From Rhizaria sp. SCN 62-66 (lineage: Eukaryota): a stretch of 46,592 nucleotides of DNA. Under the pieces are notes generated by a model that saw nothing but the letters and a program-made list of their open reading frames with translations, was not told the origin of the DNA and searched no databases. The translations under genes were made by a program, and so were the position numbers. The stretch lies in the NCBI GenBank assembly GCA_001724265.1, contig MEDY01000119.1, positions 62,001 to 108,592 on the forward strand, read 5' to 3'. The first letter of the stretch is position 1. The number at the start of each line of letters is the position of its first letter. Positions 9,001 to 31,964 of the stretch are shown one piece after another.

Positions 9001-12000
9001 TCGCTCCTGGCGCTCAACCTCAATTCTCAGGCTGCCGCTGCGTCTGCAGGGTCGGTCAAGGAGGGCGATGAGCCCGCATCTAGCCCGCTTGACGACAACG
9101 AGTTTGAGAAGCCTTCTGACGAGGCCCGCGCGCGCGCCCTCGCTGCGGCAGACCCGTCTGCGCCGAAAGTCACGTTTGGCGTCGCGCGCCGCAAGAACAA
9201 GGACGGCGATGATGACAACGACCGGCCCCCGTCGTCTCTTGAGAAGGAGGCTGCCGACACAGCTGCGGCCGCAGAGGCTGCTGAAGCTGCGACGGCGGAG
9301 GCGGTGACTGCTCTGGCGCAGGCTGAGGCTGAGGCTGAGGCTGCGGCCAAGGCCGAGGCAGAGTCAGCTGCCAACAGTGCCGCCGCCGCCGCCGCTGCCG
9401 CCGTCGCTGCGGAGATTGCAGCCAAGCGCCAGGCCGAGGAAGAGGCTGAGGCTGCTCGCCTGGCCGCTGTAGCCGCTGTGGCCGCTGCCGAGGCCGCGCG
9501 CTTGGCCGCCGAGCAGGAGGCCGCGCGTCTAGCCGCCGAGGCTGCTGAGACCGAACGCAAAGAGGCCGAGGCTGCCGCGGCGCGCACCGCAGAAGAAGAG
9601 CGCTTGCGCGCGGAGGCCGAGGCCGCCGCCGCTGCTGCCGCTGCTGCCGCCAAGGAGGCCCAGCTTGAGGCACTTCGTCAACAGAAGGCTGCTCTTGAGG
9701 CCGCCGCTGCGGCCGAGGCCGCTGCCGCCGCCGAAGCCGCCGCCGCTGCTGCTGCTGCCGAAGCTGAGCGCGCGCGCCAGGAGGAAGAGCGTCTCCGGGC
9801 TGAGCGCATCGCCGCTGAGACTGCCGCAGCGGAGGAGGCTGCCCGTATTGCCGCTGAGGCCGCCGCCGCAGTCGCCGCCGCTGCTGCCGCCGAGGCTGCT
9901 GCTGCCGCGGAGGCTGCCGAGGCAGCCGAGCGCATTCGCGCTGCTGCACTGGCAGACCTGTTGCGCGCGCTTGACGCTGCCGACGCTGAGACCGAGCGGC
10001 TTGAGGCTGAGGCCGCGGCGCGCGCCGCTGAGGAGGCCGCCCGCACCCTGGCGCGCGCCCACCGCGAGGCTGCTGAGGCCGAGGCGCGTCGCGTGGCCGA
10101 GGAGGAGCGCCTCGCCGACGTCATGCGCCAAGAGCGGCTCACCGCCCTGCTCGCCGCGGAAGAGGAACGCGAGCGACGCGAGGAGCTCGCCCGTCTCGAG
10201 GCCGCCGCCGCCGCCGCTGCCGCTGCGGCTGAGGCCGAGCGCGTGAAGCGCGCAGCTGAGGCTGAGGCTGCGCGCGCGGCTGCCGCAGAGGCCGAGCGCG
10301 AGGCGATGCGCGAGGAGCAGGAGCGCCAAGCTCAGCTTGCCGCGCTGCTGGCGGCCGAGGACGAGCGCGAGCGCGAGAAAGAGCTCGCCCGCGCGCGCGC
10401 CGCCGCCGAGACGGCCGCCGAGGAGGCCCGCCTGCGCCGTGAGGCCGAGGATGCTGCACGCAGGGCTGCCGCGGAGGCCGCACGGCTCGCAGCCTAGCAG
10501 GAGGCCGCGCGCCTAGCCGCGGAGGCCGCCGAGGCCGAGCGTGTGCGCGCTGAGGAGGAGGCCGCGCGGCTGGCGGCGGAGGCGGTCCAGCGCGCGCGCC
10601 TTGAGGCCGAGCGCGAGACCGAGCGCGAGCGCCAGCGCGCGCTGACCCAGCTGCTCGCCGCACTCGACAAGGCCGAGCGCGAGGAAGAAGAGGAACGTGC
10701 GCGCGCTGAGGCCGCCAGGCTCCTCCGCGTCGAGGCTGCGGCTGCGGCCGAGGCTGAAGTGCTGCGTCTGGCCGAGGAGGCCCGCGTGCGGCGCGAGGCC
10801 GAGGCTGCCGCGCGCGCCGCCGCCGAGGCCGAGGCGGCCGCGGAGCGCGTCCGCCAGAAGCTGTTGATGGCGCTGCTGCTGGCCGAGGAGGAGCGCGAGG
10901 TGGCCGAGGAGCTGGCGCGGCTGCGGCGCGAGAAGGAGGAAGCTGAAGCCCGCGAGCGGGCGCGCCTGGAGGCAGAGGCCGCCGAGGCCGCGCGCCGCAA
11001 GGCCGAGGAGGAGGCCCGCCTCGCGGAGCAGGCGCGGCTCGCCGAGGCCGCGCGTATCAAGGCCGAGGAGGCCAAGCGCAAGGCTGAGGAGGAGGAGCGC
11101 GCTGCTGCCGAGGCCAAGCGCAAGGCCGAAGAGGAGGCGCGCCGCGCTGAGGAGGCTCGTCTGGCCGAGGTTGCGCGCCTCAAGGCTGAGGAAGAGGCCC
11201 GTCTGAAGGCCGAGGAGGCGAAACGCAAGGCTGCCGAGAAGCAGAAGCGGCTCGAGGCCAAACGGAAGGCTGAGGAGGAGGCCCGAGTCAAGGCCGCCGC
11301 GGCGGAGGAGGCGCGCAAGGCTGAGGAGCGCAGGCTCGCGCTGCTCGAGGCGGAGCGCGTTGCGCGTGAGGCCGAGGCCGCGGCGGCTGAAGAGGCTGCT
11401 GCGGCGGCGCGGCTCGCGGAGCGACAGGACCCCCGCGCTGCCCGCGAGGCGCGCCGGCGCAAGGCCGAGGAAGAGGCCGCCGCACAGACCGCCGCGCTCA
11501 AGGCTGAGGTCGCTGACGAAGAGGCGAGCAAGAAGGCCGCCGAGGAGGCCAAGGCGAAGAAGGAGAGCGATAAGAAGGCCAAGAAGGACGCTGCGGCGGC
11601 TGCCAAGGCGGCCGAGGAGGAGGAGCAGCGGCGCGCGATGGCTGAGCTGAACCTGACCGCTGAGGAGGCCGCCAACGTGGAGCTGCGCGAGAAGAAGGGC
11701 AAGGTCAAGGCCGCGCAAAACGGCATGATTTTCGACGATAACTGGCACGACTTAGACCTCAGCGAAGCCGCCATGGACGCTGCACTGGCGCAGGACGCGG
11801 ACCTGTTCGACGAATACGTGTGCATGCATCTGCAGTCGCTTGAGCTCGAGCGCGTTGGCTTCGTTGGCTATCCCTATATCACCGTCGAGCGGCTTGACCG
11901 CACGGCGTGGGACCGCATGGGCGTGACAGAGATCAGTAACGGACAGCAGAGCTGGCTGTACCAGCCCCTCGTGCTCAACTTCAACAAGCTTACCGGCCGC

Positions 12001-13905
12001 GAGGGCACCAACCCCGTGCGACTGCAGTACTGGAACAACAACCGCGACGCCTCGCCGAGCGTGGTGGGCCAGAACACGGCGACATTTTCGACACTGACGC
12101 AACTTCGCGACGCCGGGCAGCCGCTGTACTTGTACCGGCCCGACTCGGACGCCAAGCGCGTGCCGAAGAACAGCGTGGGCAAGCTGATGGTGAAGAACCT
12201 GACCAAGTACTACAACACCACTAAAGCAGTCACAAGCTCGGACAAGCCGCGCGGCCGGTTGTTCCTGCAGGAGAATACCGACTGCCTGGTGCGGTTGCAG
12301 TTCGAAGCCAAGTCGCTTGACAAGGTCTCGCTCGTCGGCAAGGACGACACGTTTCTTCGTTTCTACCGTGCCAGTGACGCCTCTTTTATTAAGGGCAAGC
12401 GCACTGGCGGCGACGATGACTGGGAGCGCGTGCATGACACCGAGATCAAGGAGCACACGTCGTCGCCTCACTTCGACATGTTCGTGCTGCCCTCTGCGCT
12501 GCTGTGCAAGTGCGAGTATGACCGCCCGATCCTCATCCGCGCCTACGCCGCCGCGGCGCTGGGCTCGCCGACCGCGATCGGTCAGTTCCAGACCACGGTT
12601 CGCCAGCTGCTGTTTAACCCCGTGCGCAAGTACCCGATGATCAACGCGGAGAAGCAGAAGGCTTCGGCCAAGTACAAGCACTCCGGTACACTGACTTGCA
12701 ACGTTGTCCACGTCTTTTCGTCCGTGGAGACGGTCACGGCCGCTGCCCGCTACTCGCTTGCCCAGCAGTCGTCGAAGCGCAAGCTGCAGTCGCTCGAGGC
12801 CGCGTTGAAGCCCTTCCTTGCCTTCCTGAACCGCGGTGTCATTAACGCTCAACTCACTGCCGCGGACGCCGCCACGCTCCAGCAGCAGGTCGTGGCGCGG
12901 CTCGACAAGGCGCGGCAGGCCGTGAAGAAGAACGTGCGCGACCTCAAGAAGGCCGCGGACCAGGACCTGCGCGCCACTGCGTCCAAGGATCTGCTGGATG
13001 AGATCGACATCAAGACGGCGCGCGGGCAGGACAACATGCTCGCATCTGTCGCGATGCGTTCTTCCACCAGCTCCAAGCACGCTGGCGGCGGGCTCGCGTC
13101 CATGAAGGGCTCGGGCCTCGGCTCGGTCAAGGGCGGGATCGTCGCAAACGTGGACGCCGCGCTGGACCCCGACGCGTACTACAGTTGGCAGTTCCGCGCT
13201 ACGGGGCTGCCCAAGATGGACACCTTCGGCGTGACCGACCCCTTCCTGGAGGTTTCGTGCTTCCAGAACGGCAACTGGGTGCCTTTCCTGGCCTCGGACG
13301 TCGCCGAGAACGCACGCGCGCCGCGCTGGGAGCCGCTCGTGGGCAAGATCAAGTCGCTACTGAGTAACTGCGACCAGCAGCACCCGCTGCAGCTGCGCGT
13401 GTGGAACTGGAATAAGGCCGGCTCGCCCACACTCATTGGCCAGGCTGTCGTGCCCCTCGCCTCGCTGGTCACGGGCATCGCCATAACGGGCACCGTCCCC
13501 GCTGTGGCGGCGCCTTCGTCGAGCTCGACGCCGCCGACCATTGCGCCCGGGCAGCTGCTGCTGGAGCTCAAGAACCCGAACAAGAAGGACAAGGCTTCGG
13601 GCTTCCTCGTGCTCGAGGGCGCGGAGGCGCTGACGGACAAGCGTCAGCGCCGCACGCTATACATGATCGCCCAGTCGCGCGTTGAGGAGAACACGATGAG
13701 CGAGAAGGAGGCTGCGCAGCTGCTGAAGCAGATGGAGGCACGTCCCGGCACAAACCATGCCAGCTTTGGCGATAGCGCGGCCGGCACGGGAAGTGTCTGG
13801 GAGGGCATGAGCGACCGTGAACTATTGATGAGCCAGGCCGCGCGGCCCAAGACGGTATTCTCGCCCACGAACAGGAAGTCTAACCGTGGCAGCATCGGCA
13901 AGTAA
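1..13905 (+). CDS. Giant (at least 4634 aa, 5'-truncated) Ala-rich protein with a long Glu/Ala/Arg/Lys coiled coil and three C-terminal copine-type C2 domains; reads through one in-frame TAG (10495-10497)
   Basis: Frame is open from base 1 (CAG GCT GAG CGC...). ORFs 49..10497 and 10543..13905 share a frame and are separated only by TAG in the middle of the EAARLAAE repeat. Ends at TAA 13903-13905 followed by AT-rich DNA. C2-like segments lie at about 11815-12200, 12280-12720 (LQFEAKSLDK..KDDTFLRFYR..WERVHDTE..LCKCEYDRPILI..IGQFQTTV) and 13177-13620 (WQFRATGLPKMDTFGVTDPFLEV). Confidence 0.85.
9250..11700 (+). repeat. Low-complexity coding repeat (EAARLAAE / KAEEEAR type) forming a predicted coiled coil or single alpha helix
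   Basis: About 800 codons dominated by A/E/R/K with recurring units such as AEEEARLK, EAKRKAEEE and LAALLAAEDERER. Boundaries are approximate. Confidence 0.85.
10495..10497 (+). other. In-frame TAG inside coiled-coil repeat (probable sense codon)
   Basis: GCA GCC TAG CAG GAG GCC GCG CGC = RLAA*QEAARLAAEAAE. The sister repeat at about 9500 reads RLAAEQEAARLAAEAAE. Confidence 0.85.
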
Positions 13906-14506
13906 AGTCTTTGCACAATATTGAACTTTTTTCCTAACATTAATTTTTGAAGATTATCATCATAATTTTAGTTTCTTTCATTAGTTACATCAAAAACAGA
14001 CCGACTTGTTTTTGTCTATTGATTCAGTGAACTTCAAATGCTCTCGACTGCAGTGACGGCAGCCTTGCATTTTCTCACCCCACACGATACTTTAGTTTCA
14101 CATTCGTAGATTCAGTCTCGCTGTCGCGATGCCAGCTGCAGCGAGAAACAACATAATTGGTCTGTCTATATTTTCTATAATCAAGAACTTGATTAATACA
14201 CATTTCACATCCAATATCTGTGTCTCCTCGAGGTGACTGAGTGTATTTATAACTCATAGGAAGAGCGATGAAGTGCTTTCATGCATGTATGATTATTTGA
14301 GTGATACATGCATATATTTAACATTAATTGTACGTAAATGTGATACCATGCTTCCGTGATTACACTGACATGTTTATATTGTCCAGAGCAAGAGGTACGT
14401 TACCTCGCGAGAGAGTCGCATCACCGATGGAGAGAAACAAACATAAAGTATGAATTAAAAAAGAGCTATACATAACGCAATTGTAGTTTCTCCCACACTA
14501 ATCCGA

Positions 14507-17343
14507 TCACGCCATCCTCATCTTCTTGACACCAACCATAAGTGAACCTTTACTGTCGTCGTTCACCGGCGTTGCACTTGCACTCCTGCTCTGAGCATCA
14601 TTACCAGCAGTTGCAATGGCAACCAAGCTTGCATTGCCGTACGACGTGTTCCCACCCGTGCTAGGAACAGGCGTGCTGATCGAGGCACCGGCACTGCCGG
14701 TGGCGACTGCAACTGCGACGGCAGCGGCCTCGAGCTCTGCGCCCAGCGCCAGGTCGCCCGCAAGCCGGGCGACGTCGGCCGGCCGCCGGCCTTGCGCGTC
14801 GCGCGCGCGCGGGTCCGCGCCGCGCAGCAGCAGCGCGCGGCACAGCACGCCGTTGCGCCGCATAGCCGCAATGTGCAGTAGCGTGCGCGCGCCAGCGGGC
14901 GCTGGCGCCGGTGCCAGTGCAAGGGGCACGGCCACCGTCAACAAGGCAGACGCAGATGTAGGAGCGGCGCCAAGAGCACTGGCGTTCGCGGCAGCTCCGA
15001 TGTTTGCAGCAACATGGGTGGGTGCAGCAGAGACTGCGCCGTTAGCATCTGTCATCGCCATTACTCCGCCGTTCGCCTTGTTCGGGGTTAGATTGTTGCT
15101 TGTCGCAGCCTTGTCAGTAAGCTTACCACCCAAACCAGAATTAGCGTTGGTGTTCTGCAAAGTGCCCGCGCAGTCGATCAGAGCGCCCGCGTCGAGCAGC
15201 GCAATGGCAATTTCGGTGTATGACTTAAGAGCAGCAATCATAAGTGGCGTCAGGCCGTCGTGCGCGCGCGGGGACGGACGCGCACCGGACAGCGTCACCG
15301 TTGACGCACTGTTGCTGGCGTTCGTCGTGATGCGTGGACGCAGCAAGGTTGCGACGACGGAGAAGTGGCCGTTTTGGACTGCCTTGTACAGCGGGGTCAC
15401 CCCTTCAACAAGAAAGTGATACAATTCGAAAAAGATCACATATTGAGTGAAATGACGATTGAAATCAGCCTGCAAAAATCCATTGAGCTTTCAGATTTGT
15501 CGCCTGGAAACGTACCGTCCGCCCGTGCCCTGTCGGGATCGGCCCCGCCCCTAAGCAGCGCCGCAACTGAGTCCGCGTGGCCATTCTGAGCCGCCGCCAG
15601 CAGCGCCGTGGAGCCGTCCCCGGCCGCCGCGGCGTCCACGGGCGCGCCGGCCGCCAGCAGCGCCACGATGGCGCCTGCGCGGCCCGCCTGCGCGGCGAGG
15701 TGGCAGGCGGTCAGCTGGGTTCCCCCGGCACGAGTGCACGGGTCAGCGCTGAGATGAAACAAAGATATACAACAATTATTACAGGATGTCGTCCAAGCAT
15801 GAGTACAGGTGCACATTTGAGACTGCGAGCGATGATACAGTGGACGCAAAAAAACAACACCAAACAAAATCCGTTTGAGGTTAAGTTCAACATTTGTTTT
15901 CATATCAACGTACCGCATTTTGATGAGTTGAATCACACAATCGGTGTAGCCGCCCGCGGCCGCAGTATGCAGCAGCGGCCAGCGGCCCTCGTCTGTCCCC
16001 ACCGAGTTCAGCACGCAGCTCACAGGCATAGACTCGGCTTCGCTCACAGCAGCGGCAGCAGCAGCAGCCTCAGCGGCGGCAGCGGCGGCGCGGGCGGGCG
16101 CAGCGGCGGCGCTTGCAGCAGCAACAGCGGCAGCAGCGGACAACACGACGTCAATATCGCCGTCGCCGTCGACGTCGGCTCTGGTCCCTGCACCTGACAC
16201 ACTCAGCCCGCAGTTGCCCTTGGCCACCCTGGCTTGGGCTGTAGCAGCAGCGCGCGCCGCAGGCGTCGCAGCCGCGCCGCCAGAGAGCGCCGGCGGATTG
16301 ATGTGCGCGACGTCGAAGCCTTGCGCGAGCGTGGCGCGCCAGGCGGCCTCGCGCTGGCGCTCCGCAGCGGCCACGGCCGTCGGCGACGGCGGCAGCGGCA
16401 GCGGCACCACTACGCCCGACGCCGCCGAGGAGAGCGACACGGTCGAGTCCACGGAGCTGTCACGGGACACGGGGGCAGCGGGCGCAAACGCGGCCTGGGA
16501 CGCCCCTGACTGCTGTTGCTCGGTTGGCGCCATGGCGACTGCGGTTGATGTTGCTGCTGCCGCTGCTGCTGACGTTGAGAGAAGGAGTGGGGGGCGGCGT
16601 TGAGGGCGGCCACGAGCAAGGTTCGGCGCAAATTGAGTCAGAGCAGAGGTGGTAGAACCGACAGCACCACCACTAAGCGCTCTTGTCGTCGTGCCGTTGA
16701 AGCTAGAGCTTGAATCAGAGGCGAAGCTCGAGTTTGCAGAGCTTGAGTTGCTGGTGTTCATATTAATACTACCAAAGGCGCTCGCAGGAACGCGCGGACC
16801 AAACATAGGCGTAAACACAGCGTTTGTCCTGCCGTCCGCGCGCTGTGCAGCAGCAGCCGCAGCGTTGGCCGCGGCGGCAGCGGCGGCGGCAGCAGCGGCA
16901 GATGTCGCGACTCGCGGCGCGGGGGGCTGCACCGGGCAGACAAGCGCAGCGGCCAGTTCGGCGTCGTCGCAGCGGGACAGCCCGCACGCGGCGTGATAGG
17001 ACACAAGCAGATGCAACACGGCGCTGTGCCCGCGTTGTGCTGCTGAGTGCACAGCCGCGGCGAAGCTATCCGCGAATACGCCTGGGGGTAGTAGCGGCAG
17101 TAGGTGCGAGAGTTCGGCAACGCCACCGGCCCGGGCGACATCGAGGAAGCGGCGTGTAGCCTGGGGCGCATTCGAGCGTGTACCAGAAGTGTGTCTAACA
17201 GGTATAGAGAGCGGGGATGTGGATCGCGTGCCTGACTGTTGCAGTGCAAGCGGGGAGATGGAAGTGGCAGGAGCAGCATTGAGGTCCTAGCCTGCGTGCA
17301 GGTTCAGCGGGGATACCCCGATGTTTCCGGCAAACTTCGGCAT
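14507..17343 (-). CDS. Ankyrin-repeat protein, about 852 aa; exons 17343-15914, 15748-15516, 15402-14507; in-frame TAG at codon 19
   Basis: Ankyrin motifs: FLDVARAGGVAELSHLL, AVHSAAQRGHSAVLHLL, PLLHTAAAGGYTDCVIQL, TACHLAAQAGRAGAIVALL, TALLAAAQNGHADSVAALL, TPLYKAVQNGH, TPLMIAALKS, TLLHIAAMRRNG. Two phase-compatible introns restore RARADGVTPLYKA. ATG 17343 directly follows AT-rich DNA; ends TGA 14509-14507. Confidence 0.85.
15403..15515 (-). other. Spliceosomal intron (113 nt, phase 1) of the ankyrin gene
   Basis: GTACGT donor and ...TTGTTGAAG acceptor, AT-rich. Removal joins ORF 15436..17052 to ORF 14507..15475 within an ankyrin repeat. Confidence 0.85.
15749..15913 (-). other. Spliceosomal intron (165 nt, phase 2) of the ankyrin gene
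   Basis: GTACGT donor and ...TTTCATCTCAG acceptor, AT-rich. Removal gives IQLIKMRADPCTR, a normal ankyrin turn. Confidence 0.85.
17287..17289 (-). other. In-frame TAG near the N-terminus of the ankyrin gene
   Basis: Reads MPKFAGNIGVSPLNLHAG*DLNAAPATS... in frame with the ankyrin repeats. There is no other in-frame ATG before the first repeat. Confidence 0.7.
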
Positions 17344-17536
17344 CAAAAATAAATTGTTATCTTACGAAATCTTTACGAAATACTATCGAAGCTATTATAT
17401 GCACGAAGCACGAAGCTTTCAACACACAATTTCAGAGCCGAGAAAAGTCATCAGACCAAAGCAAGACGAAGAATAGCAATTGTATTAGAGGCTGGTGGTT
17501 GTCAGCGTAAGAGAGGTGTTTTCCGCGCAGTCACAC

Positions 17537-20500
17537 TCAGAGCGCAGCCTTCATTCTGAAGGCCTTCCTGCCCGCGGCGTACTCGCCGAGGCGCTCCCCC
17601 GCGGCGGCCGCGGCGGCGACGACCCGCGCGAAGCCCCAGTGCGGGATTGCCCGCGCCGCCGCTTTGAGCGCCAGCATGTCGTCGGCGTCGCGCGCACGCC
17701 CACAGAGCTGCAGCAGCTGCAGCGCAAACTCGGACAGCACTTCGCGCTGCTCTGCCGAGCCGCCCACTGCGGCGATGGCGTCGGTGGCGTGGCCGCGCAG
17801 CATCACGCCGCATTCGCTGCCGCTGCTGCTGATGCTGCTGCCGTTGTGGCCATTGCTGCCGCTGTTGCTGTGGACGCCGAGCGAGAGCGCGGAGCTGCCC
17901 GCCAGCGCAGGCAGCGACAGCACGTGCGCCGGAGCAGCGGCAGCGGCGGCAGCGTGCGCGTGGGCGTGGGCGTGGGCCGAGATGTCGACTGTGAGCGGCA
18001 TCGGCGGCACGGCCACGAGACTGAGGCCCGCGCCGTCCGCGGGCCCCGCAGCGACGGCGGCGCGCGCGACTGCCAGCGCGATGACCTCACTGTCGTCACA
18101 GCCGCCACCGCCGCCGCTGATGCCGCCGCTGTCGCCGTCGATGTCACTGTCTTCGTTGTCGTCGTCGCAGTAGCTCTCGATGAGTGCGGCCACACTGCTG
18201 CTGCCGTTGCCCCCGTCGGTCGAGCGCAGAGAGGAAGAGGAGACAGAGCCTCCGGGGGGCGCGTTCACAAGCAGCGCCAGCGACGCCGGGAGCAGCAGCG
18301 CGGGCGCCATCAAGCCGACGCTGCTGACCGCGCTGCTGATGCTCGGCGCGTGAGAGGCGCGGCCTTGCTTAGCGCTGCCGCTGTGAGAGCTCGCCGTCGC
18401 ATGGCCCGGGACCGTTGTGCTGGCAGTGAAGGTCGCTGCCGCGGCGGCGAGCGCGGCGGCTTCATCCGCAAGCACGGCGTCGCCAAACAGGGCCAGCGCC
18501 TGCGGGTCGGCCTGCTCACGGTCACCATCGAGCCCATGGTCACTGTCGTGCTCACGGTCACTTGCGTCGCTCTCGTCGTCGCTCGCGCTAGCACTGGCGC
18601 TCGCACTCGCCGTAGCGCCCGCACTCGACGTCGCGCCCGCACCCGCGCCCGCGCTCGCTGTCGCGCTCGAACCGCGGGCACGGCTCGGCGGCTTAGGACT
18701 GCCCGCCCCAGCGCTCGCGGCGCCGGCGTTGGCGGCAGCGTTGGCGGCAGGGTTGGCGCCGGGGCTGAGGCGGCGCCTGCGGGCCCCCAGCAGCGGCGAG
18801 GCGCCGGAGCCTGCCTTGGCGCTGCCGGCACCAGCGCTCGCAGCTGCAGCAGCCGCCGCCGTTGCGCCGCTACCGCTGTTGTTCGTGCTGCCCGCTGCGA
18901 CAGCGCTCGGCGGACTGGCCGGGCTGGCCGCCGGGGCGACGACTGGCGAGACGCCCGCGCTGCTCCCCGCGTTGCTGGCCGCGGCGCTCGCGTTTGCGCT
19001 GGCGGCGTTTGAGTTGCTCTGGCTGCTGCCGTTGCCGCCATTGCCGCCCCCGCTGTGCGCGCCGCGGATGGCCGCGGGCCCTAGCAGCGGCGCCAGAGTG
19101 TCGGCCGCGGCCGCCACGCCGCCGCGCGCCCAGAGCCTGACGGCGGCGAGCACAGGCAGCAACGCGCGGTCGAGGCTGCCGCGACGCGGCTCGGGGGACC
19201 GGTGCACAGCGACCGCGGCCGAGGAGGCGAAGGCGTCGAGCACGTCCTCGACGGCGGCGCGCGCGGCGGCCGAGAGGACCAGCGGGGACAGGTCGTGTGA
19301 GGCCAGCGCGGACTAGGCGGCGGAGATGCTGCTGGCGCTAGCGCTAGGGCTGCTGTTGCTGGGGTTAATACCGAGAGCAATAAACAGTGCGGAGACAGAA
19401 GCAGCAGGGTTGATCTCACTGTCAATCTGCGCATCGGCACCACCACTTTCAGCATTCACAGTCACATTCGTGTCGTTGTTAGTGCAGTCGCCGCTGCCGC
19501 TGTTGCAGTGGAGGTACGGGCTGTGCGCGATGACCGCGGCGGCGACGGCCTCGTCCTTGGCGGCCCGTTCCACGCGCGCCAGCACGTACGCGGCCATGAT
19601 GTCGTAGAACGGGTCCGCGTGCGACGGAGACCGGTGCTTCAAGTACTTAAACACGCTGCGGAAGCGCGCGTTGAGCAGCGGAACCGTGTCGCAGTACGGC
19701 ACAACGGCCGACAGCGCACGCAGATATGCCGCGTCGCTAATATACACCGAACTCGCACCTGCACTCACATTCAAGCCAGAGTCTGCGTCGGTAGAGCCCG
19801 TGCTGCTGCTGCTGCTGCCGCTGCTGCTGGTGTTGTTGTTGCTTGCGCAGGGGAAAGGCGTGGGGAACGCGGCGCGCAGAGCGAGCAGCGCGCGCGGAGG
19901 CAGCACTTGGTCCATCCACGCCAGAGAAGGCGGGAAACCAACTGCGCACGCGAGCGAACGCGACTGCGACAGCGATTGGGCCTGAGTGCGAGACTGCGAC
20001 TGCGCACCAGCTGCCGCGGCACTGGCCGCCGCCGCTGCCGCGGCTGCCGCAGCGCTGGCCGCGACGGTCGCGGCGCGCGTGTTGAGGCGCATCTCGAGCT
20101 TCCAGAGCAGCCCTGCGGCGCCGAGCTGGTCCTGGCTCGAGTTGGGGTCCTGCAAGGGGAATGGCGGCGGCAGCGACGGCAGCGCCGCGCCCGCGGGCAG
20201 CGCGTCCTGCAGCAGCGCGTGCGGCAGTGGCAGCGGGGCAGGCGCGGCGCCGGCGCTACCGGCATCGCTGCCGCTAGTGCCACTGCCGCTGCTGCTGCTG
20301 CCGCTCGGTGTGACTGAGGGGTCGTTGGCGGCGCTGGCACGATCGAACCAGAGCAGCTCGCGCATGGGGCACTCGAACGCACTGTTGGAGCTGGCACTCG
20401 ATGACTGCTGTTGTTGACTGTCGTTGCTGGCGTTGCCGTTGCCGTTGCTGCGGGCAGCGCGCTTGCGGCGGTCCTTGAGGGCCGAGAGCACCCAGAGCAG

Positions 20501-22226
20501 CGACTCGCAGTCCCAGGGGCCCAGGCGCCGCGCCGCCGAGCCGCTTGCAGCCGCAGCCGCGCTCGCAGTGCTCTTGGCGTCGCCAGCAGCGCCGGCGCCG
20601 GCGCTGCTGTGGGGGCCCGCAGCGGGCGCCTCGTGAGGCAGCGGGCTGTGCGGGGAGCGGTCAAGCTCCACTAGACCGGAGCCCTGAGACTGTGGCTGCG
20701 ACAGAGAGAGAGCCTGCGAGTTCAATGCCGCGGAGTCATGCGAGACAGGGGACGTCGTGCTGACGTCCTTGTTGTTGTCGTTGTCAGTCAGCTTCGTAGC
20801 GCCCGACTCGGACATACTCTCCGCGGCTTCTGTCAACGCCTCCGCGTCCGCGGCGGCCTCCTGCCAGGGCCAGACCGCCCGGTCCCAGACGGCAACGACG
20901 TCGCTGAACGCGTCCAGGTCGAGCTGGAAGAGCGCGATGTGGAACCAGTTGTGCGTCAGCATGAATGACATCGAGCGCCCCCACAGCGGCGCGCGCCGCA
21001 GCATAAACCGCAGCCCCGGGCGCAGGCGCGCGAGGTAGTAGAGCGCGTGCGCGGCGCCGTGATGCGCCCAGGGGTCCGCGGGGCTCAGCCGCGCGCCCGC
21101 GAGCCCGGCGGCGAGCGCGGCCGAGAGTCGGCCCGCCTGCTCCAGCGCGAAAGCCAGCATCCCGTGGTAGTACGGCCGCGCGACGACGGGGGCCGCGGGG
21201 GCCGCGCTAGAGTGACCGTGGCTGAGGTTGTTGTGGTTGCGGTTGTTGTGGGGCGCGCAGGCGGCGCTGACTGCGGGGTCGGCGACGACCGAGAGCATCA
21301 GGCGCGGGCTGCCCAGCAGGAATGCGAGCAGCTGCGCGCGCTTAGCGGCGAAGAGGTCCGCTGGGTGCGCGGCGGCGATGCGCGCGAACAGGTGGTAGGC
21401 GCGCGCGGTGTGGCCCTCGAGCCAGCTGGACATGAGGAGTTGTGAGAAACAGATTTGTGAAGCAAGCGTGAGAGTTGAAAGAAAGTGCCAGACAAGAAAA
21501 TAAAAGCACAACAGGTAGAATTCACTCAAATATGTGAATATATTGCCAATTCTTCTCTCTTTGTTTTCCCGCGTACGTTTTGAAGGCCTGTACGTAGAGC
21601 CGCTCGCGGCTGCTGAGCCGGGCGCCGCCGACCGCCTTGAGGCGCGTCGCGGCCTTGACGAGCGAGACGGCGCCGGGCACGTCCTCGCAGGCGAGCGCGT
21701 AGTCGGCGGCAAGCACGGCAATGAGCGGGGACGTGGGGTCGAGCGCGCGCGCGAGGGCGATGACGCGCCACTCGCGTCCGTACGATAGCACCTGCTCCAC
21801 GTAGGCCGACACGAGGCGGCCCAGCGCGGCCACAGCGGGCGCCGGCAGGCGCGGCGACACGCAGAAGGGCAGGCCCTGCGCGTCCACCGCCAGCCCGGGG
21901 GCCAGCGCGCCCGCGGGCAGCGCGGCCACGCTCGCGGCGGGCGCCGCGCTAGAGCTCGGGCCCGTTGCGGACGTCGCAGCCGCAGCGCTGGCGGGGGCAG
22001 CGGCGGCGGAGGCGGAGGCGGAGACGGCTCTGGCAACGGCGGCGTGTGGGGCCGCGGCCGTGGCGGCGCGGCGAGAGGGCGACGGCGGGCTGCGGGGGCG
22101 CGGGGACGCGCTGCGGAGGCCAGAGAGCGACGTCTGGTGAGGCTGCGAGCGCGGCTGCTGTTGCGACTGCTGTTGCTGCTGCGAGGCAGCGGGCGCGGGG
22201 CCGGAGTCCGGGGCGCGCTACGACAT
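17537..22226 (-). CDS. TTC38: TTC38-like tetratricopeptide-repeat protein, about 1512 aa; exons 22226-21577 and 21425-17537; in-frame TAGs at 22220-22218 and 19315-19313
   Basis: Family motifs in order: RERLYVQAF.WLEG, HPADLFAAKRAQ, YYHGMLAFALEQAG, PADPWAHHGAAH, FMLTHNWFHIALF, GLLWKLEM, HADPFYD. After the TAG come LLPVLAAV..ADTLAPL and GGSAEQREVL. Ends TGA. The start at ATG 22226 is less certain. Confidence 0.82.
19313..19315 (-). other. In-frame TAG upstream of the conserved C-terminal TTC38 motifs
   Basis: ATC TCC GCC GCC TAG TCC GCG CTG = SISAA*SALASHDL. The same frame continues to TGA 17539. Confidence 0.85.
21426..21576 (-). other. Spliceosomal intron (151 nt, phase 2) of the TTC38-like gene
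   Basis: GTACGC donor and ...CATGTCCAG acceptor, AT-rich. Splicing gives YVQAFKTWLEGH. Confidence 0.88.
22218..22220 (-). other. In-frame TAG at codon 3 of the TTC38-like gene
   Basis: ATG TCG TAG CGC GCC CCG = MS*RAPDSGPAPAASQQQQQ. The frame runs without another ATG into the TPR domain. Confidence 0.6.
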
Positions 22227-22821
22227 GCCCACTGACAGTATGTGTAGACGGTGTGGCGGTACGGGCCTATGATGTGTTGCGGTTGTGGAGAGAGACAGGG
22301 GTTCAGGTGAGGGACGCAAGGACAGTGTCGCGTGACGTCAAGACAGATCGCAGAATTGAAAGTGGACTATTTAGCGCCAGAGTCCGTCACTAAGCGCATA
22401 GTTTTAAGGGCAAAAGACAACTTAAGAATTTCAAATAATAACGATATTATATGCCCTATGCTTGTTTTCCTGATGGTGTTGCGCTATTTTAGTGACTACC
22501 CCGGGACCGACTCTTGAACGCGCTAGCGCGCCCCCCTCACGCAAGTCCGATTCCCGCACTTGTCGGGATATATCTTGTTATAAGCAATGATACTAGGGTA
22601 CTCGATTCATAGTATTAATATTTTATTTCATAACACGTGTATCATTGACATATCTCACTCACAACAACTTCTATCCCGACTTTCTCTTCTTTGCCCTCTC
22701 GCACCACCAATCCGAAATTTCGCACACACGCGTGCGCGCCACAAACAGCTTCAAAGCAGCGTATCACTTGACCACATATCACAGTTTGGAGCGCCGTATT
22801 TTGCTTTGCAGCACCCCGCCG

Positions 22822-25800
22822 ATGCTGTCCTCGCGCTTTGCATGCGCGCGCGCTCTCCTGCCGCGATCCCTAGCCGTGCACGGCTCCGTCGCCATAGCGG
22901 CCTCTGCCTCGCCGCCATACGCACAGACGACCGCCGGCTCCAGCTCTAGCGCCGGGGCTGTCGAGCACTTGCGCCCGTCACCGCACTCGGCGGTGTCACG
23001 TGCGCTTGCGACTGCGGCGGCCCCGAAGATGGCGCTCAAGCTGACGCCCGACGCCGCGGCGGCGCCGGCGACTGCGCGTGCGCCTGTGGCCGCGGCCAGC
23101 GGGAGCGCGGCTTCAGAGAAGAAGAGCAAGATTTCTGCGACGCCAGCTCAACGTGTCGCCGCCGCGAAGGCACCGCTTGCTGATGCACCCTCAGCAGCGA
23201 CTGCGGCTATGCCTGAGGCATCAGTGACCCAGACGGCCAATGGGACGACTACGAGGCCAAAGCTCCAGACTGTGCCCCCTGCAGCGGCGAAGCGGGCGAA
23301 GCCCGACACAGAGACGTTTGCGTCGCAGTTGAACTTTTTGCTGTCCCTATATCTACCCAAGACCACTCTCGACCCCATCTTTACTCCTGCTATGACAGCA
23401 GCATCCGCATCAGCATCAGCAGCCGCGTCACAGTCCCTCGCGCGGGTCCTGGAGCCGCTGGCCCCGCTGCTGCCGGCCCCGGTCGCCTCTGCGCTGCGCC
23501 CGCTGCTGTCGCCGCTGTCCGCCGCGGCCCAGCGCGCGCGCCACGCCGCGCTGTGCGCTGCTCTCGCGGCGGCCAGCGCGGCCTACTACAACTCGCCCGC
23601 GCCGCTGCTGCCTGACGCCGTGTTCGACTTGCTGCTCGCCGAGACGGAGGCGCTGGAGGCGCTGCGGCCCGCGCTACGCACCGCGCAGTCCCCGACCGCG
23701 ACCGTGGGCGCAGACGTGCGCACAGTCACCAGCGCTACCACAGGCACTGACCTTGCTGCTGGCACGAGCTTTGGCACTATTCCTGCGACAGCAAAGCGGT
23801 CCGCCGCGCTCTCGCGCCTGCAGGCCTGGGCCGCCGCGGCCAATGACAGCGACGCCAGTGCCTCCGCCTCTGCTGCGGGCGACGCGGCGGAGAGCGCCCA
23901 CATGCGGCACCGCGTGCCGATGCTGTCGCTGACCTCGACCTTCGATCCCGCCGCTGTGGTCCGCTTCGCCAAGGCCACCGCGCGCGCGCACTGGCGCCCG
24001 CTCCTTACCGCGCTTACCGTGCGCGATGGCGCGCACGCCGTCGCCGCCACCACCGTCAAGACCGCGAACTCGGTCACAACGCTGCTTGCGGTCAGTGAGC
24101 GCGGGCCTCCCGCTAGCGGTGCCAACGGCATTGAGGACGAAGAGAGCAGCAATAAGGCGGCGGCAGGGACCGGTGGCGGGGCAAGGAAGGTCAACAAGAA
24201 ATTCACCGCGAGGACGCGCGTTCCGCTGTACGTCCCTCTGCAAGAGCGTGGTGCGAGCGCTGGGGCACGCGGACAGCTGCCGATCGCCGGTGATGCGCGC
24301 ACAAAATCACCTGTCACCGGTCTCGGCGTTGCTGAGGGCGCGTCTGCGCTCGTTGTGCCCGCGCCGGCCCAGGCCCGCGCGACCGCGCTGCTGGGCCAGT
24401 GGTCGCTCGCTCACTCGCAGGCCCCGCAGGCGCGCAGCGAGATGCCGTGCGCACTGCAGGCGATGCCGCACGCTCTAGCCACTGCGAGGCTTGCGTCGCT
24501 GCTCATGGCCACGCTGCCACAGGAACCACAGTCTCTCAGCGCCGACACCGCTGGCGGTCAGAAGCTGCCGTTGTCTGCTGAAGCTATTGCGGGCGCCGGC
24601 GCCTCCCGTCTGCTGCTGAGTGCGGCGCCGCTGCTGGATCGTGCCGGCAGCCCCGCTGTGGCGCTGCTGACCGCGCACGCACACGCCGCGCTGCCGTGGG
24701 TTGCCGCGCTCGCGAGGCTGCGGTTTGCGAAAATCCATGCTGAGATGCGGCTTTCAAGCGAGCACGAACGCGTGACGATCAACGACGCACGGAACAGGGG
24801 CCGTGCTTTGCTTTTGTCTCTCAACCACAACGGTGACGCCATCGACGGCGCTACTGGCGACGCGAGCGCGGCTGCGGTGTACCCGCCACTGGCGCACACG
24901 CTGGAGCTCAAGTACGATGGCATGGCGCTGTCGCTGGCCTACAGCGGCGGCGCGCTTGCGACCGCGGCCACTCGCGGCAACGGCGCCGTCGGCACGGGCG
25001 TGCGCAGCAGGGTGCGGCGCCTGTGTCCCGCGCTGCCCACTGCGCTGCACGGGCCGAGCCACGGCGCCGACGCGGCTGCTGCTGCTGGTGGTGCTCACAA
25101 CCACAGCGAGGGCCGCGGCGGCTCGGTGCAAACCTCTTCTGGCCAGAAAAATACTACGCAGGATCGCAGCGCTGCAGGCCGCGTCAGTCACAATGACATC
25201 GCCGGTGACAAGAGCAGTCGATACCACACTGCTCTGCACAGCGAGCTTGCCGCCGCTCTGGCACCGATGCAGGCGGCGTTGGCACGCGTTTTAGTCGCGA
25301 CGACAGCACAAAGCTCGGCGACTGTTACATCAGACGCCACTGCTCACAGTAGCTTGGACTGGGCCTCGATGTCTGGCCAAGACGTCTGGGCACTGCTGCC
25401 AACCGAGGGGCAGGCAGAAGTCGCACTCGCACACACCGTATGGACGCAAAGTCAAGCCGCCTGGGGGAATATTCAAACCACCTCTTCTTCCAGTGACAGC
25501 GACGCGTGGGCAGCGTTCGTAGGCCTTGTTTCTGCGCCCATGACCCGCGACGAGTACGACGCACTCGTGCGCCCCCAGTCACTTGAGGCGCAACCACAAT
25601 CACCGGCACAGGCAGTGGCGCCGCTGTGGGCGGGCACTGTGGAGGTTCGCGGCGAGCTGCTGCTGCACGACGCGGAGTTCGCGCGCATCAACGAAGCGGC
25701 CGCCATCAGAGACACAGCCGCGGCGGTAGCAGCCGCAGCGGCAGAGGGCGAGGATGTGGAGGCTGCTGCCAGTGCTGCGGAAGCTGCAGGAATGCGCTTT

Positions 25801-28800
25801 TCAAGCCCCCGCAACCTTATTGTCGGCATTCTCGGCCGCGACGATGTTGAACCTGCTGTTGCTGCCGCGGCCGAAGCCGAGGCTGCCGCGGACGCTGCGC
25901 ACGCGCTCGCGGAGGCGCGGTCTGACGCGAAGTCAGGCCGCGTTGGCGGTTTGGCAAGCCGCGCGCTGCCTGGTGACGTGGTGAGCCGCGACCCTCTGTC
26001 GCCCAACACGCGCGCGGTGTTCGTCGCATACACGCTGATGATGTTCGAAGACTTGTCTCTGCCAACTGGCTCGCGCTACAGCACGAACCCGAACACGAAC
26101 ACCCATGCAGACAGCGCTGAGGTCCTCAGCTCAGATGCCGGCGCTGCCGCTGAAGCTGCGGCTGCCACCGCGGGTGCAGTGTCTGTGACACTGACGCTCG
26201 CCCCGCTTGCGGCGCGCGCCGTGGCGGCCACTGTCGACACAGAGGCCGCAGCCCATGGCCTCGATCCACTTGAGACTGACGCGTTGCTGATGCAACGCGT
26301 GCGCGCGCTGGCAGCGTCTTCAATCGATGACGCGGTCACCGCGATGGCTCGTGCGGCCGAGCCCGCGGCACTGGCCCGCGCTGCTGCCGCGCTACTGCCG
26401 CACCACGCGCGCCTGTCGCTGATGCGCTCGATGGGGTTCACGGTGGATCCCTACGCTACCGTGCTGACGATTCCCCCCAGTGAGCACGCAGATGTGTTGA
26501 CATCAGATAGAGATTCGCTTTTATCCGCTCTAGAGAGTGGCACAGCATTCAGTGCCAGCGTGGGCCCATCAGAGGTGCTTCTGTGGCCTGACTTAGACAG
26601 CCCGGAGGAGCTGAATTTCTACTCTGAAAGCAACATCAGGAAGAGCATTGCGAGCGACAAAGCTGCTAAGAAAGGCGTTGGTCTTGAACAGGCGGTTGGT
26701 GAGTATGTTCAGTCGCTGGCCTCCGCTTCGCTGGCGTTTGCCGGCGTCGGTTCCGTTGATTGGAGTGCGCTCACACTCAACAAAACTAGTGGTACAACGA
26801 ATTCGAATGACGAGGAGTCCGATGTATTTGACGAGATCAACCGCGGCTACAGCGCAGCAGTTGTGCGCACAGCAACTGAGCGCGCTGCGTCTCGCTCCAT
26901 CCCTCTGCCGTTCATCCCCACACAGTCGCCGTCGCAGTCACTCACGCAGTCCCGGTCGCACCCGATGACTCCTCTGTTCCGCCTCGCGTCGGCCTATCTG
27001 TTCACCGTGCGCCGCCACACCCCGCTGCGCACCGACGGGCTCGTGCTCAAGGTCTCCGACTCGGTCGCCACCATGGCGCTGGGCGCTGCGTCGCGGTCGT
27101 CGCGCGCCGCCATCGCCGTCAAGGCACCCGCCGCGCTCGCTGCCGCTGTTGCTCGGGAGCGAGGTGAAAAGACAGATACCTCAGCTTCAAGCAAGGCGAC
27201 GCCCGCTGCCACCGACGCGAGCAGCGGTGCTGGCATCGACGCCCACAACGCAGAGGTCGCGTCGCTCGTGTCGACCGCCCTCGGCGGCGCCGCGGCCGTG
27301 ACCCGGCTTCTGGGCGTGTCAGTGCAGATCGGCCGCTCCGGCCGCGCCACGCCGGTGGCCTCGCTGGCGCCCGTGCAGCTGGGCGGCGCGACGGTGGCCC
27401 GCGCGACGCTGCACCACCACGGCGCCGTGGGCGACGCGGACGGACCGCTGGCGGGGCTGAGGCGCGGGGACCTGGTCGTCGTGGAGCGGCGTGGCGACAT
27501 CATTCCCATGGTTAAGGCAAGGCTGCCAGATCATCTGCAGCAACAGCAGAAGCCGCAACAAAGAAAAAGCACGCAGTGCGATGATGAAAGTGACAAGCTG
27601 CTGCCGCGGGGCCCGTGCGGGTCATACCTTTGCCCGTGCGGACTGAAGACGAAGCTGGCGCGCAAGCCTCTTATTGCTGCAGGCACCAGCGCTGCTGGCA
27701 GTGCTGGAGGCAAGGGCCGCCGTGCTAGCAATGCACTCAGCGACGACACCGACTTTGAGCAACTCGCTTTCGAGGCTCTCGGCAACGGTAGTGCTGGTAC
27801 GAGCGCTCGCATAGCTGCTGCAGCAACGGGCACCGACGCCGACGCGTTTGATGATCCGCAGTTCTCTCCCACGGCTCAGCCCGGCTGGTCCGCGGCGCTC
27901 TTCTGCCCGTTGCCGCTGCTGTGCCCGGCTCAGTCGCTGCGCCGCCTCGCGCACTTCGTGTCCAAGGGAGCGCTCGACGTCGACGGGCTCTCGGCGCGCA
28001 CGCTGGCGCAGCTGCGCGCCGCGGGGCTGCTGCACGTTTCGCTCCCGGGGCTTGCCGCGCTCGCGCTGGACACGGAGACGCGCCGCGGACTCTGCAGGGC
28101 GCTGGGCGTGCCTCTGCTCGACGGCGACGGTGACGGGGGCGACAGAGAGTGGCTGCCACACCCGGACCTGCTGCCGCCCCGCGCGCGCGCCAGGGACCTG
28201 CTGTGGCAGTACGATCAGGCCTACGGGACCGGCGGCCGCGGCGGGAGTCCTAGCCAGAACATCAGCAAGACTGGTGTGGCCAACACTGCTGACGCTGCCG
28301 AGGGCGAGGACCAGTGGGAGTTTGCTCTGCCCCCCGCCTACCGTCTCCCGTTGGGTCCCGCCCAAGCCGCCCCCGTGGCCGGCGGCGCGTGCGGCGTCTA
28401 CGGCTGGCAGACTCGCAAGGCGCACCGCATGCTCACCGCGCTGTCGACGTCGCTGGCGGAGCAGCCGCTGCCGCGCTTGTTGACCGCGCTCGGCGTGCCT
28501 GGGCTAGGTCCCGCGGTCGCGGCGTTACTGCTGCGGCGCTTCAACGGCGACGTGCGCGCGCTCTTCGCGGCCACTCCCGCGGACCTCGCCGGGATCAAGG
28601 GCATTGGCGGGGAGAACGAGGGCGCCGCCGCGCTCGCCGCGGGGCTGCGTGAGGCGCTCAAGCGGGACGCGATGCCGCTCGCTCTGCTCGGCGTGCCTAC
28701 GTTCGCGCCGCTGTTGACATTAGCCGACGACCCGCAAGCTAATCGCAGGGGCTGCAGCGTAGCGAGCAACACCACTGATGCTGATGATAAACCTAAGAGC

Positions 28801-29819: not shown

Positions 29820-31964
29820 TTAGTTCTTGTTCTCGTTGGTGTTAAGCCACGAGCGCACCATGCGCGACCGCAGCGGCTCCCAGCTGTTTTGCACCGCGCT
29901 CGCCGACCACTCGAAGTCTCGCGCCGCGGCCGTCTTCGCGGCCGCCGCGACCGTGGCCGCCGCCGCCTCTGCAGCGGCCGCGGAGACGGATACATCAGGG
30001 GCCGCGGCTCTAGTCGCGGCGGTCGCGGCGGTGACAGCGGCGCACGTCGAGCTGCGGGGCGCCACGGCACAGGCACCCGCGCCGACGCCGTTGCCGCGCG
30101 GCCCGCTGGCGCCGTGTGCGCCCGCCTGGGCGTCAGGATCGCTCGCGCGGTCGAGCCCCCAGACGTCAAGCGCCGCGGCGGCAGCGGCCGCGGTGACCGA
30201 GCCCTGCGCCGCGGCGGCTGCTGCAGCGCGGCGGGTCCTGCCGCGGCCGCGCCCCGCGCTGCCGGCGCTCAGGTCGCTAGGGCTAGCAGCGGCGACGAAC
30301 GCGATCAGCGAGTTGAACGGCCTGACGGGGACCACCGTACTGCCACCGTCACCGTCGTCTGCGCGGTGGCCGCGCGCGAGGGCCATGGCCACGGTCGTCG
30401 CCGCGGTGGCCGCGTCGCGCGCCACGTGCGTCGCGGCGCCGTCCGAGAGCAGGTCGTGCAACGCCTTGATGCCGCAGTACTCGGTGCCCGGCTCGGTCGC
30501 CGCCGCGTCGTCGCGCGCGCCGTCCTCATCGGCGTCGGCGTCGTCCTTGCCGCTGCCGGGGCGGAACAGTGGGATGAGCACGACCGACCGCGCCCGGACT
30601 GGAGCAGAGGCCGAGCCAGCGCCAGCGCCGGCGGCGGCGCTGCGCGCGTTGGCGGCCGTGAGCGTGGGCCGGGGGCAGGACAGCGCGAGCAGCACCGCGG
30701 CCCGGAACTGCGCCACGTCCGCCGCCGCGAGCACCGCGCCGGGGGCCGGACACGGTGCGGCCGCGGCGGCCAGCTGCTCCGCCTGCGTGGCCACCAGGCG
30801 GGCATCGCAGGCAACCATGGCGGCGGCGGCAGCGCTGCTGAAGCTGGAGCCGCGCGCGCCAGCGCCAGGCAGGGGCGCGAACGGGGGGATGATGGTGATC
30901 ACGGTTGCGGTGTCGACGGCGTCGCTCGCAGCGCTGTCGGTGGCGCCATCCAAGGGTAGGAAGGTGGTTAGACTCGAAGACAGCGCCGCGGCGGCGCCCA
31001 AGGGGGTGATACGGCGCGCGCGCTCCACAGACAGCGACTCGTAGCAAACATCTTTGCTGCTGCTGCCTGCACGGCTCGCTGAGGCCGGAAACGCGGCGTA
31101 CGAAACCGCGATGCTCGACGGCCCCGCGCCGCTGCCGGCCGCGATCGAGCTGGAGAAGGCTGAAGCCAGGCTGCCCGCGGCCGCCGCGGCCAGCGCCGCC
31201 AGCCCCCCCTGTCCCTGTCCCTGCTCTTCAGCGTCGTCAGTGTCGTCAGCAAAGTGGCTGTAAGCCGGGTTCGGCAGTGCCAACGCCTGCGAGGCCAGCC
31301 GGGCCAGCGCGGGGCAGCGCCGCGCCGCGTCGGTCGCAGCGCGGGCCTTGGCGCGCGCGTCACTGGGTCCCCGCTTGCTCTTGGCGGTGGTGCCGAAGTA
31401 CTCGTTGTACTGTGCGTGCCAGGGAGATTGCGGGCAGAGCGGATGCAGCGAGGCGTAGGGGCAGACCACCGCGGGGGGCGCGATCAAGGGTGCGACGAAC
31501 ACAGCCGCGACGGCGACGATCACCGCGGCGACGAGAAAGCGAAAGCTGGAACGGGAGTCCTTCTGCTTGTCAGACGGAGGATTCAGCGACTTAGACTGAG
31601 CGCCAGAGACAACCCTCAAGCCGGCAACGTGGGGAGTGCGTGTTGCACTCACGCTGTCGCGGTGGCCACGACCCCTGTCGCTGTCATTGACACGGGGCGT
31701 CAGCAGCGGCTGCGAGGAGCGGCTCCCGGTGCTCACCGAAGTGTGCTGGCGTGTCATCGTGAGGCTCGTCGGCGCGGAGACAAGCTATTCAACGCAGGGG
31801 CTAAGACGGGCCGACCCGGGGACGGTATGCGAGGTGCCAGCGCGCGTGGAAAGGCCGGCGTCGGCGTGGGAAGGAGTGGGCGCTCTCGCTGAGCCAGCCG
31901 AAGCTATGGGGCCCGGCACAGCCTCGCGGTGGCCGCGATTATCGTGGCCGCGCTTCGGAGGCAT
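29820..31964 (-). CDS. Single-pass membrane protein of unknown function, about 714 aa; in-frame TAG at 31787-31785
   Basis: ATG 31964 (MPPKRGHDNRG...) is in frame with ORF 29820..31757 across one TAG. Hydrophobic span FRFLVAAVIVAVAAVFVAPLI is followed by a Cys-containing region. Ends TAA. Confidence 0.75.
31785..31787 (-). other. In-frame TAG in the N-terminal region
   Basis: Reads SARLSPCVE*LVSAPTSLTMTRQ. GC-rich coding-like sequence continues upstream to ATG 31964. Confidence 0.6.

Follow-up and report, generated by a model that had tools for sequence, protein, structure and literature searches.

In-frame UAG codons in a TTC38-like gene point to genome-wide reassignment of UAG, probably to glutamate, in a nuclear genome with UAA and UGA as stops

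Structure of the TTC38-like gene

Is a TAG codon lying deep inside a protein-coding frame translated and, if so, as which amino acid? This question is raised by a gene in a 46,592-nt stretch of DNA (hereafter the window), which belongs to a eukaryotic assembly of 34.9 Mb in 714 contigs (G000). An earlier note on this DNA had drawn attention to a TAG in frame with motifs of TTC38 proteins, and had concluded that the codon is translated. The gene occupies positions 22226-17537 of the minus strand and comprises 1,512 codons, one intron and two in-frame TAGs (codons 3 and 921). Its features, in window positions, are:

21577-22226, minus strand: exon 1, beginning at ATG 22226; a low-complexity N-terminal part is followed by the first portion of the conserved domain, which the HMM matches from aa 137 onward
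22218-22220, minus strand: first in-frame TAG (codon 3), directly after ATG 22226
21426-21576, minus strand: spliceosomal intron of 151 nt (GT..AG, GC 0.39), predicted from sequence and homology
17537-21425, minus strand: exon 2, with conserved TTC38 blocks split by long low-complexity insertions; ended by TGA 17539-17537
19313-19315, minus strand: second in-frame TAG (codon 921), in a Ser/Ala-rich insertion
19070-19282, minus strand: first conserved block past the codon-921 TAG (aa 932-1002, HMM 336-406; 14.7 bits in the full-length protein)
17561-17794, minus strand: C-terminal conserved block (aa 1428-1505, HMM 399-476; 22.2 bits), including GGSAEQREVL

The TAG at 19315-19313 is indeed in frame with the upstream TTC38 motifs, and 591 stop-free codons follow it up to the TGA. 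The three motifs that the earlier note had placed downstream were found there: LLPVLAAV (19162-19139) and ADTLAPL (19105-19085), both in the first post-TAG block, and GGSAEQREVL (17764-17735). No ATG other than that at 22226 precedes the conserved domain; the next methionine, residue 260, falls within this domain, which starts at residue 137, so the TAG at codon 3 must be passed too. Annotation with the standard code cuts such genes short, as in the case of a 706-aa database protein (P0121, on seven contigs) that terminates exactly at the codon-921 TAG.

Homology on both sides of the TAG

Homologs were drawn from the best 150 of 924 matches of a phmmer search with the N-terminal domain, and a family HMM was built from 81 homologs of 390-520 aa. 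The family name comes from ESM Atlas on the homolog P0280 (0.97) and from one named member of a matched cluster; a Pfam search of the TTC38-like protein gave no match. All blocks of the family are kept in order, three before the codon-921 TAG and two after it, and the conserved N-terminal helical core is present (HMM 45-288 corresponding to aa 137-409, 263 bits). Compared with the family, the protein is enlarged from about 450 to 1,512 aa by low-complexity insertions, which also much enlarge other proteins of this genome.

The alignment to TTC38 homologs that the earlier note had proposed was favourable to its claim. The ORF past the TAG scored 23.7 bits by itself, in two ordered blocks (HMM 336-406 and 398-476), compared with less than 0 bits for the other two frames of the strand and at most 3.8 bits for 500 shuffles, 495 of which scored. 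The C-terminal GGSxxQR-type motif ascribed to TTC38 proteins is a genuine family feature: 55 of the 81 homologs have GG-x(2,3)-QR at a distance of 19-85 aa from their C-terminus, and the TTC38-like gene has it past the TAG. Four uninterrupted homologs (P0128, P0278, P0280 and P0133) align in order on either side of codon 921, which itself sits in an unalignable low-complexity insertion. The statement that about 590 post-TAG codons are under selection goes too far: roughly 150 of the 591 can be aligned with the family, and the strain differences after this TAG are one synonymous and one non-synonymous. Over the whole CDS seven of the eight listed strain differences are synonymous, which is too few for dN/dS.

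Four RNA runs compared with positions 13000-22900 gave short contigs only, and among those listed none extends across 19313; intergenic DNA, too, is covered by the poly(A) run. In run X4, contig record 8 includes the codon-3 TAG (22220-22218) without change, its five differences all lying elsewhere. Removal of the codon-921 TAG by an intron, an outcome the earlier note had named as fatal to its claim, is unlikely. Of the three donor-like motifs that occur less than 390 nt before it (19589, 19419 and 19371), none is in phase with an acceptor at this codon, and the region is not AT-rich (GC 0.57, versus 0.39 in the real intron). Translation of the codon is very probable, since homologs span it in order, the same pattern is found genome-wide and a cognate tRNA exists. 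The locus is silent on which residue UAG inserts, and it is not the best single-locus support, as had been thought; stronger support comes from the eRF1 gene, whose conserved N domain contains a TAG.

Internal and terminal stop codons across the genome

A codon model was trained on 809 kb in 78 sequences, namely the window, 17 stretches near earlier matches and 60 stretches of 10 kb taken without selection from large contigs (contigs C1-C61 supplied 58 of them and the contig of the window two). Internal in-frame stops with coding signal on both sides numbered 27 for TAG and none for TAA or TGA over the 809 kb. In the unselected 600 kb alone the counts of TAG, TAA and TGA were 15, 0 and 0 with the strict filter and 34, 2 and 1 with the relaxed one. 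Random errors would be expected to give a TAG share of 64-67%, from which the observed counts differ with p of 0.001-0.002 (strict) and 1e-4 to 4e-4 (relaxed).

The ends of genes present the opposite picture. Gene-end-like stops at a threshold of 8 comprised 36 TAA, 17 TGA and 4 TAG, and at a looser threshold 55, 30 and 13, respectively; inspection by eye assigned nine of these 13 TAGs to the inside of genes, to introns or to a wrong frame and left four as possible true stops. The TAG at L095 lies eight codons upstream of a TGA end. Under one common filter we counted 47 TAG, 5,380 GAG and 962 GAA codons, so that UAG accounts for about 0.7% of the Glu codons sampled; scaled up, this gives roughly 2,000 UAG codons in the genome. 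Such a low frequency suggests that the codon is either young or disfavoured. UAG is missing from four dynein heavy-chain frames of 4,554-5,164 aa, and the GC3 of coding DNA in this genome is about 0.85.

Searches by protein family placed seven TAGs in exons, those of five kinases, one Rab and eRF1. A lone TAG occurred in nine of 142 kinase matches (four intron 3′ ends, five exonic) and in two of 54 Ras matches (one exonic, the Rab). Those found in the DEAD (1/43), kinesin (1/54) and dynein (2/18, both) families were intron ends, and the 20 ABC matches contained none. Five kinase matches bearing TAA or TGA were all introns; two Ras and two kinesin matches also bear TAA or TGA. Three of the loci (L071, L072 and L073) belong to a fast-evolving kinase family with several TAGs and a helical-repeat C-terminus, SEL1-like by eye. 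The L071 copy may be decaying, given its TAA and frameshift.

Two further TAGs lie in frame within other genes of the window:

10495-10497, plus strand: in-frame TAG in a separate 4,600-codon gene that encodes a C2 domain farther downstream; the corresponding codon of a repeat copy, about 1 kb upstream, is GAG (Glu)
42990-42992, minus strand: in-frame TAG with Gln-rich surroundings, within a third gene (43745-39246)

The first of these genes is a giant ORF of more than 4,600 codons (1-13905, plus strand) with a long Glu/Ala/Arg repeat region. Another TAG (31785-31787, minus strand), upstream of ORF 31784-29820, passes the coding filter with a longer window; it may be internal or precede the start codon. 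Neighbouring frames include two ankyrin-repeat ORFs side by side (14507-17286, minus strand) and a 2,324-codon ORF (22597-29571, plus strand) with domains of an NAD-dependent (bacterial-type) DNA ligase and large insertions. We are highly confident that the finding is real and points to genome-wide reassignment of UAG.

A tRNA gene with a CUA anticodon

A single tRNA gene with a CUA anticodon was identified in G000 (contig C84, about 76008-76080). It was the one such gene among the 10 matches of a pattern search for this anticodon, none of which was a Gln-type CUA tRNA. The pattern would catch an intronless Gln-type CUA tRNA; intron-bearing, long-arm or unassembled genes escape it. A separate, Glu-type pattern gave eight CUC, one UUC and one CUA gene, and no UUA gene; the reversed control gave 0, and an Rfam search scored 63 of 506 tRNA candidates, leaving the tRNA set incomplete. 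The CUA tRNA has a normal cloverleaf fold, its gene is followed by a T run, and ordinary host genes surround it on C84. Among the isotypes compared, it is closest to the tRNA-Glu(CUC) of the same genome (47 of 73 bases identical, versus 33 and 29 for tRNA-Gln). The label “Pyl” given to it by ARAGORN follows the anticodon; the tRNA body is Glu-like.

The anticodon arm contains C32-A38, G30-C40 and U31-A39. According to PMC12204705, the combination of C32-A38 and G30-C40 made an engineered human tRNA-Glu(CUA) efficient, with more than 45% read-through and about 95% Glu. The engineered tRNA-GluV13(CUA) thus has in common with the G000 tRNA a Glu body, the CUA anticodon and both of these pairs; the latter is natural and also carries U31-A39, a pair that reduced suppression in that study. 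In bacterial GluRS recognition C36 is an identity element (PMC9976931), so charging of a CUA tRNA with Glu is not guaranteed.

Changes in the release factor eRF1

Three eRF1 candidates were found in G000, one of which is a true eRF1 (L032:1117-1824, contig C63); the other two are Pelota exons. Its N domain carries an in-frame TAG at the column of human E107, which among 117 homologs is occupied by Glu in 107, Asp in nine, Val in one and Gln in none. The same TAG is present in an identical unspliced eRF1 contig from a second collection (L143). A metagenome scan with eRF1 gave 30 loci, with L143 as the one identical contig, Gln in the TAG column at L148 and no close relative among the 30. In yeast, the eRF1 substitution E107A is reported as viable (PMC4381064). 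A UAG inside the stop-recognition domain of eRF1 itself constitutes a possible feedback site.

Two changes in the protein, T32S and G57S (human numbering), occur in none of the 117 homologs, the nearest included. T58K is found in one, the closest relative P0004, and K130Q is also changed. The eRF1 of P0004 is 84% identical, with Val in the TAG column, the next best homolog being 72% identical. T58K is common to G000 and its metagenomic relative or relatives P0004 and P0284 (84% identity in eRF1, 74% in PF20), in which T32 and G57 are unchanged; these provide a natural outgroup for dating the T32/G57 change. Residue T32 is described as bonding to the G of UAG, and it is changed in Iotanema, which reassigns UAG only (PMC5304391). 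T32S and G57S probably weaken UAG recognition in the eRF1 of G000.

The residue encoded by UAG

Three kinds of evidence bear on the inserted amino acid, namely the tRNA body, codon context and conserved columns, from which Glu emerges as the most likely reading. The neighbours of 47 TAG sites contain on average 1.43 Asp+Glu, compared with 1.51 for GAG and 0.68 for CAG under the same filter. The best fit to this context was a mixture of 70% GAG-like and 30% CAG-like sites in a model whose weights are our assumptions; a purely CAG-like context was 9.9 log units worse, and a purely GAG-like one 6.6 (1.5 with a longer window). This same-filter test was used in place of a simple neighbour likelihood over 20 residues, which proved uninformative (top residues Met and Tyr). 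At least three Gln neighbours occur at six of the 47 sites, and some TAGs lie in polyQ tracts. The Gln-like share of the context may be there because CAG-to-TAG transitions are tolerated in polyQ.

Six conserved Pfam sites, one of them in a damaged paralog, gave summed scores relative to X of +6.7 bits for Glu, +5.4 for Lys, +5.2 for Gln, +1.9 for Ser, -2.6 for Tyr, -5.1 for Leu and -7.8 for Trp; Glu thus leads Gln by 1.5 bits and Lys by 1.3. Of the 47 relaxed TAG windows, 24 were compared with Pfam, which produced two weak domain matches and no usable column. Paralogs have D,D; K,K; Q,L; Q,D; and E opposite the TAGs, with BLOSUM sums of 14 for Glu, 14 for Asp and 12 for Gln. On the Pfam sums, UAG=Trp and UAG=Tyr were rejected, as was UAG=Leu, including the case of a sainouroid rhizarian with UAG=Leu.

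Identity of the organism

DNA of G000 occurs in sequencing runs from bioreactor, wastewater and activated-sludge samples. The presence of PF20 and of about a dozen dynein heavy chains in the genome marks the organism as a flagellate. Its 18S gene (L081:4459-8903, contig C706) contains four group I introns, the first of which has a 177-codon ORF whose His-Cys pattern resembles that of homing endonucleases. The C706 18S also has an extra hairpin after helix 17, resembling by eye that of Multisulcus in Fig. S1 of PMC12328842; helix 17_1 marks Tetramitia.

The PF20/SPAG16 protein (L066:392-2137, minus strand) has a best match of 74%; among the named homologs listed none exceeds 42% identity, and the protein appears to lie on a very long branch. 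In a FastTree of 69 rows, from which 25 redundant animal-type rows, two long fused rows and the 13 weakest matches were omitted, it groups with Pharyngomonas kirbyi and two long branches (SH 93), a position that may reflect long-branch attraction. The organism is likely, but on weak support, to be a heterolobosean, and the C706 rDNA could be mis-binned.

A probable UAG=Glu code and its alternatives

The DNA contains in-frame TAGs, genes ending in TAA or TGA, a CUA tRNA gene and a changed eRF1. From these we infer translation of UAG, Glu as its residue and a causal role of the eRF1 changes in the loss of UAG termination. We consider it probable that this nuclear genome uses a code variant in which UAG encodes Glu via one tRNA-Glu-derived CUA gene, with UAA and UGA still serving as stops. 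A single gene of this origin would read UAG as glutamate; eRF1 changed at T32 and G57 would have lost UAG termination while keeping that at UAA and UGA; and the TTC38-like gene would encode one intact protein of 1,512 aa through two UAG codons.

Assignment of UAG to Gln throughout the genome (NCBI table 15 type) would require that the Glu-bodied CUA tRNA be charged with Gln, or that a tRNA-Gln(CUA) be missing from the assembly. TAGs in polyQ tracts, the two paralog sites with Gln and the small Pfam margin speak for it, and stop-to-Gln is the commonest change according to PMC11687900. On the other side stand the Glu type of the only CUA tRNA found, with none of Gln type among the 10 pattern matches, an acidic TAG context that is GAG-like rather than CAG-like, and an eRF1 column with Gln in 0 of 117 homologs; CAG-to-TAG transitions would account for the polyQ sites under Glu and Gln alike. 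Assignment to Gln is therefore unlikely. Panek and co-workers are said to have described in 2025 UAG=Gln in the heterolobosean Dactylomonas venusta. Should the organism be near the Dactylomonas lineage, Gln would become more credible, and what is new would shrink to a further member of a known code.

UAG could also be ambiguous, the tRNA competing with an eRF1 that still partly reads UAG or with a near-cognate tRNA-Gln, so that UAG would be read mostly as Glu but at times as Gln or as a stop, and would still close a few genes. Such a state would fit the great rarity of UAG and its absence from long conserved ORFs such as the four dynein frames, as well as the mildness of T32S, the single copy of the CUA tRNA, the four possible UAG gene ends and the mixed context. 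We nevertheless hold it to be quite improbable: a TAG at codon 3 of the TTC38-like gene and another in the sole eRF1 argue for efficient reading, and UAG, with the L095 case so close to its TGA, shows no clear depletion near gene ends, although these numbers are very small.

That the standard code applies, with the TAGs being assembly errors, strain-specific nonsense alleles or pseudogene lesions, is already largely refuted and has very little probability left. The genome is derived from environmental data, and the TAGs of the kinase paralog L071 are accompanied by a frameshift and a TAA. Against this, the asymmetry is confined to TAG, the sole eRF1 contains one, a well-folded CUA tRNA is dedicated to it, the TAGs recur in L143 (eRF1), in the seven contigs of P0121 and in run X4 (codon 3), and strain differences in the TTC38-like CDS are nearly all synonymous.

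Removal of TAG 19313 from the RNA, by an unseen intron or by editing of UAG to CAG or UGG, is scarcely credible: TAG is a frequent 3′ splice site in G000 (nine TAG-bearing family matches were wholly or partly intron ends) and none of the listed RNA contigs covers 19313, but the donor-like motifs are out of phase in a region of higher GC than the real intron, Trp is rejected by the Pfam columns, and the codon-3 TAG, the eRF1 TAG and the CUA tRNA would be left unexplained.

Comparison with known genetic codes

Reassignments of UAG alone are known to Leu, Gln and Ser, and Glu is known only alongside UAA=Glu (peritrichs) or UAA=Lys (PL0344), according to PMC11687900. Literature searches, which left most subscription papers uncovered, yielded no account of a code that has UAG=Glu and keeps UAA and UGA for termination, and the accessible portions of PMC12574857, PMC13180982, PMC13768787 and PMC13192750 contain no code of UAG=Glu alone.

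In Oligohymenophorea sp. PL0344, as proposed for G000, UAG=Glu is read by a tRNA-Sup(CUA) nearest to tRNA-Glu, and UGA is a stop. However, in this ciliate UAA encodes Lys, and there are 10 CUA and 12 UUA tRNA genes (PMC10553269), whereas in G000, which is not a ciliate, most gene ends are UAA, and the searches found a single tRNA gene with CUA and none of Glu type with UUA. UAG=Glu is also common to peritrichs and Blastocrithidia, the latter using tRNA-Glu(CUA). In both, UAA and UAG are Glu together, a change tied to AT pressure (PMC11687900, PMC12153298), whereas in G000 UAG alone is altered and GC3 is high. UAR=Glu and the PL0344 code were both rejected for G000, in which there are 0 strict internal TAAs, TAA is the commonest end and no Glu-type UUA tRNA was found.

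UAG=Gln with UAA and UGA as stops, like those of G000, is described in Iotanema, Hartmannula, Trochilia and Protocruzia, UAG=Leu in the rhizarian exLh and phyllopharyngean MAGs, and UAG=Ser in Scotinosphaera (PMC5304391, PMC11687900). Unlike in these UAG-only codes, the residue in G000 appears to be Glu, and UAG makes up a far smaller share of its codons than the 6.5-32% of synonymous codons in UAG-only ciliates (PMC5304391, PMC11687900). Residue 32 of eRF1 is changed in Iotanema as T32G (PMC5304391) and in G000 as T32S.

A more specific scenario, which we offer tentatively and regard as doubtful, is that of an unreported UAG=Glu-alone code caught early in a GC-rich genome that has a single adapted tRNA-Glu(CUA), mild changes in eRF1 and some 2,000 UAGs, and in which the eRF1 UAG may act as feedback. 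In such a GC-rich genome AT-driven codon capture would not apply. If the feedback were true, eRF1 output would fall whenever UAG termination outcompetes the CUA tRNA.

UAA and UAG nearly always shift meaning together, and UAG=Glu alone would be an additional code, found in a non-ciliate. Here, as in few other such cases, a single genome shows tRNA, release factor and codon usage together, so discrimination between UAG and UAA by eRF1 becomes directly testable through T32S, G57S and T58K. The natural CUA tRNA, moreover, shares anticodon-arm changes with an engineered therapeutic suppressor for Glu-to-stop mutations.
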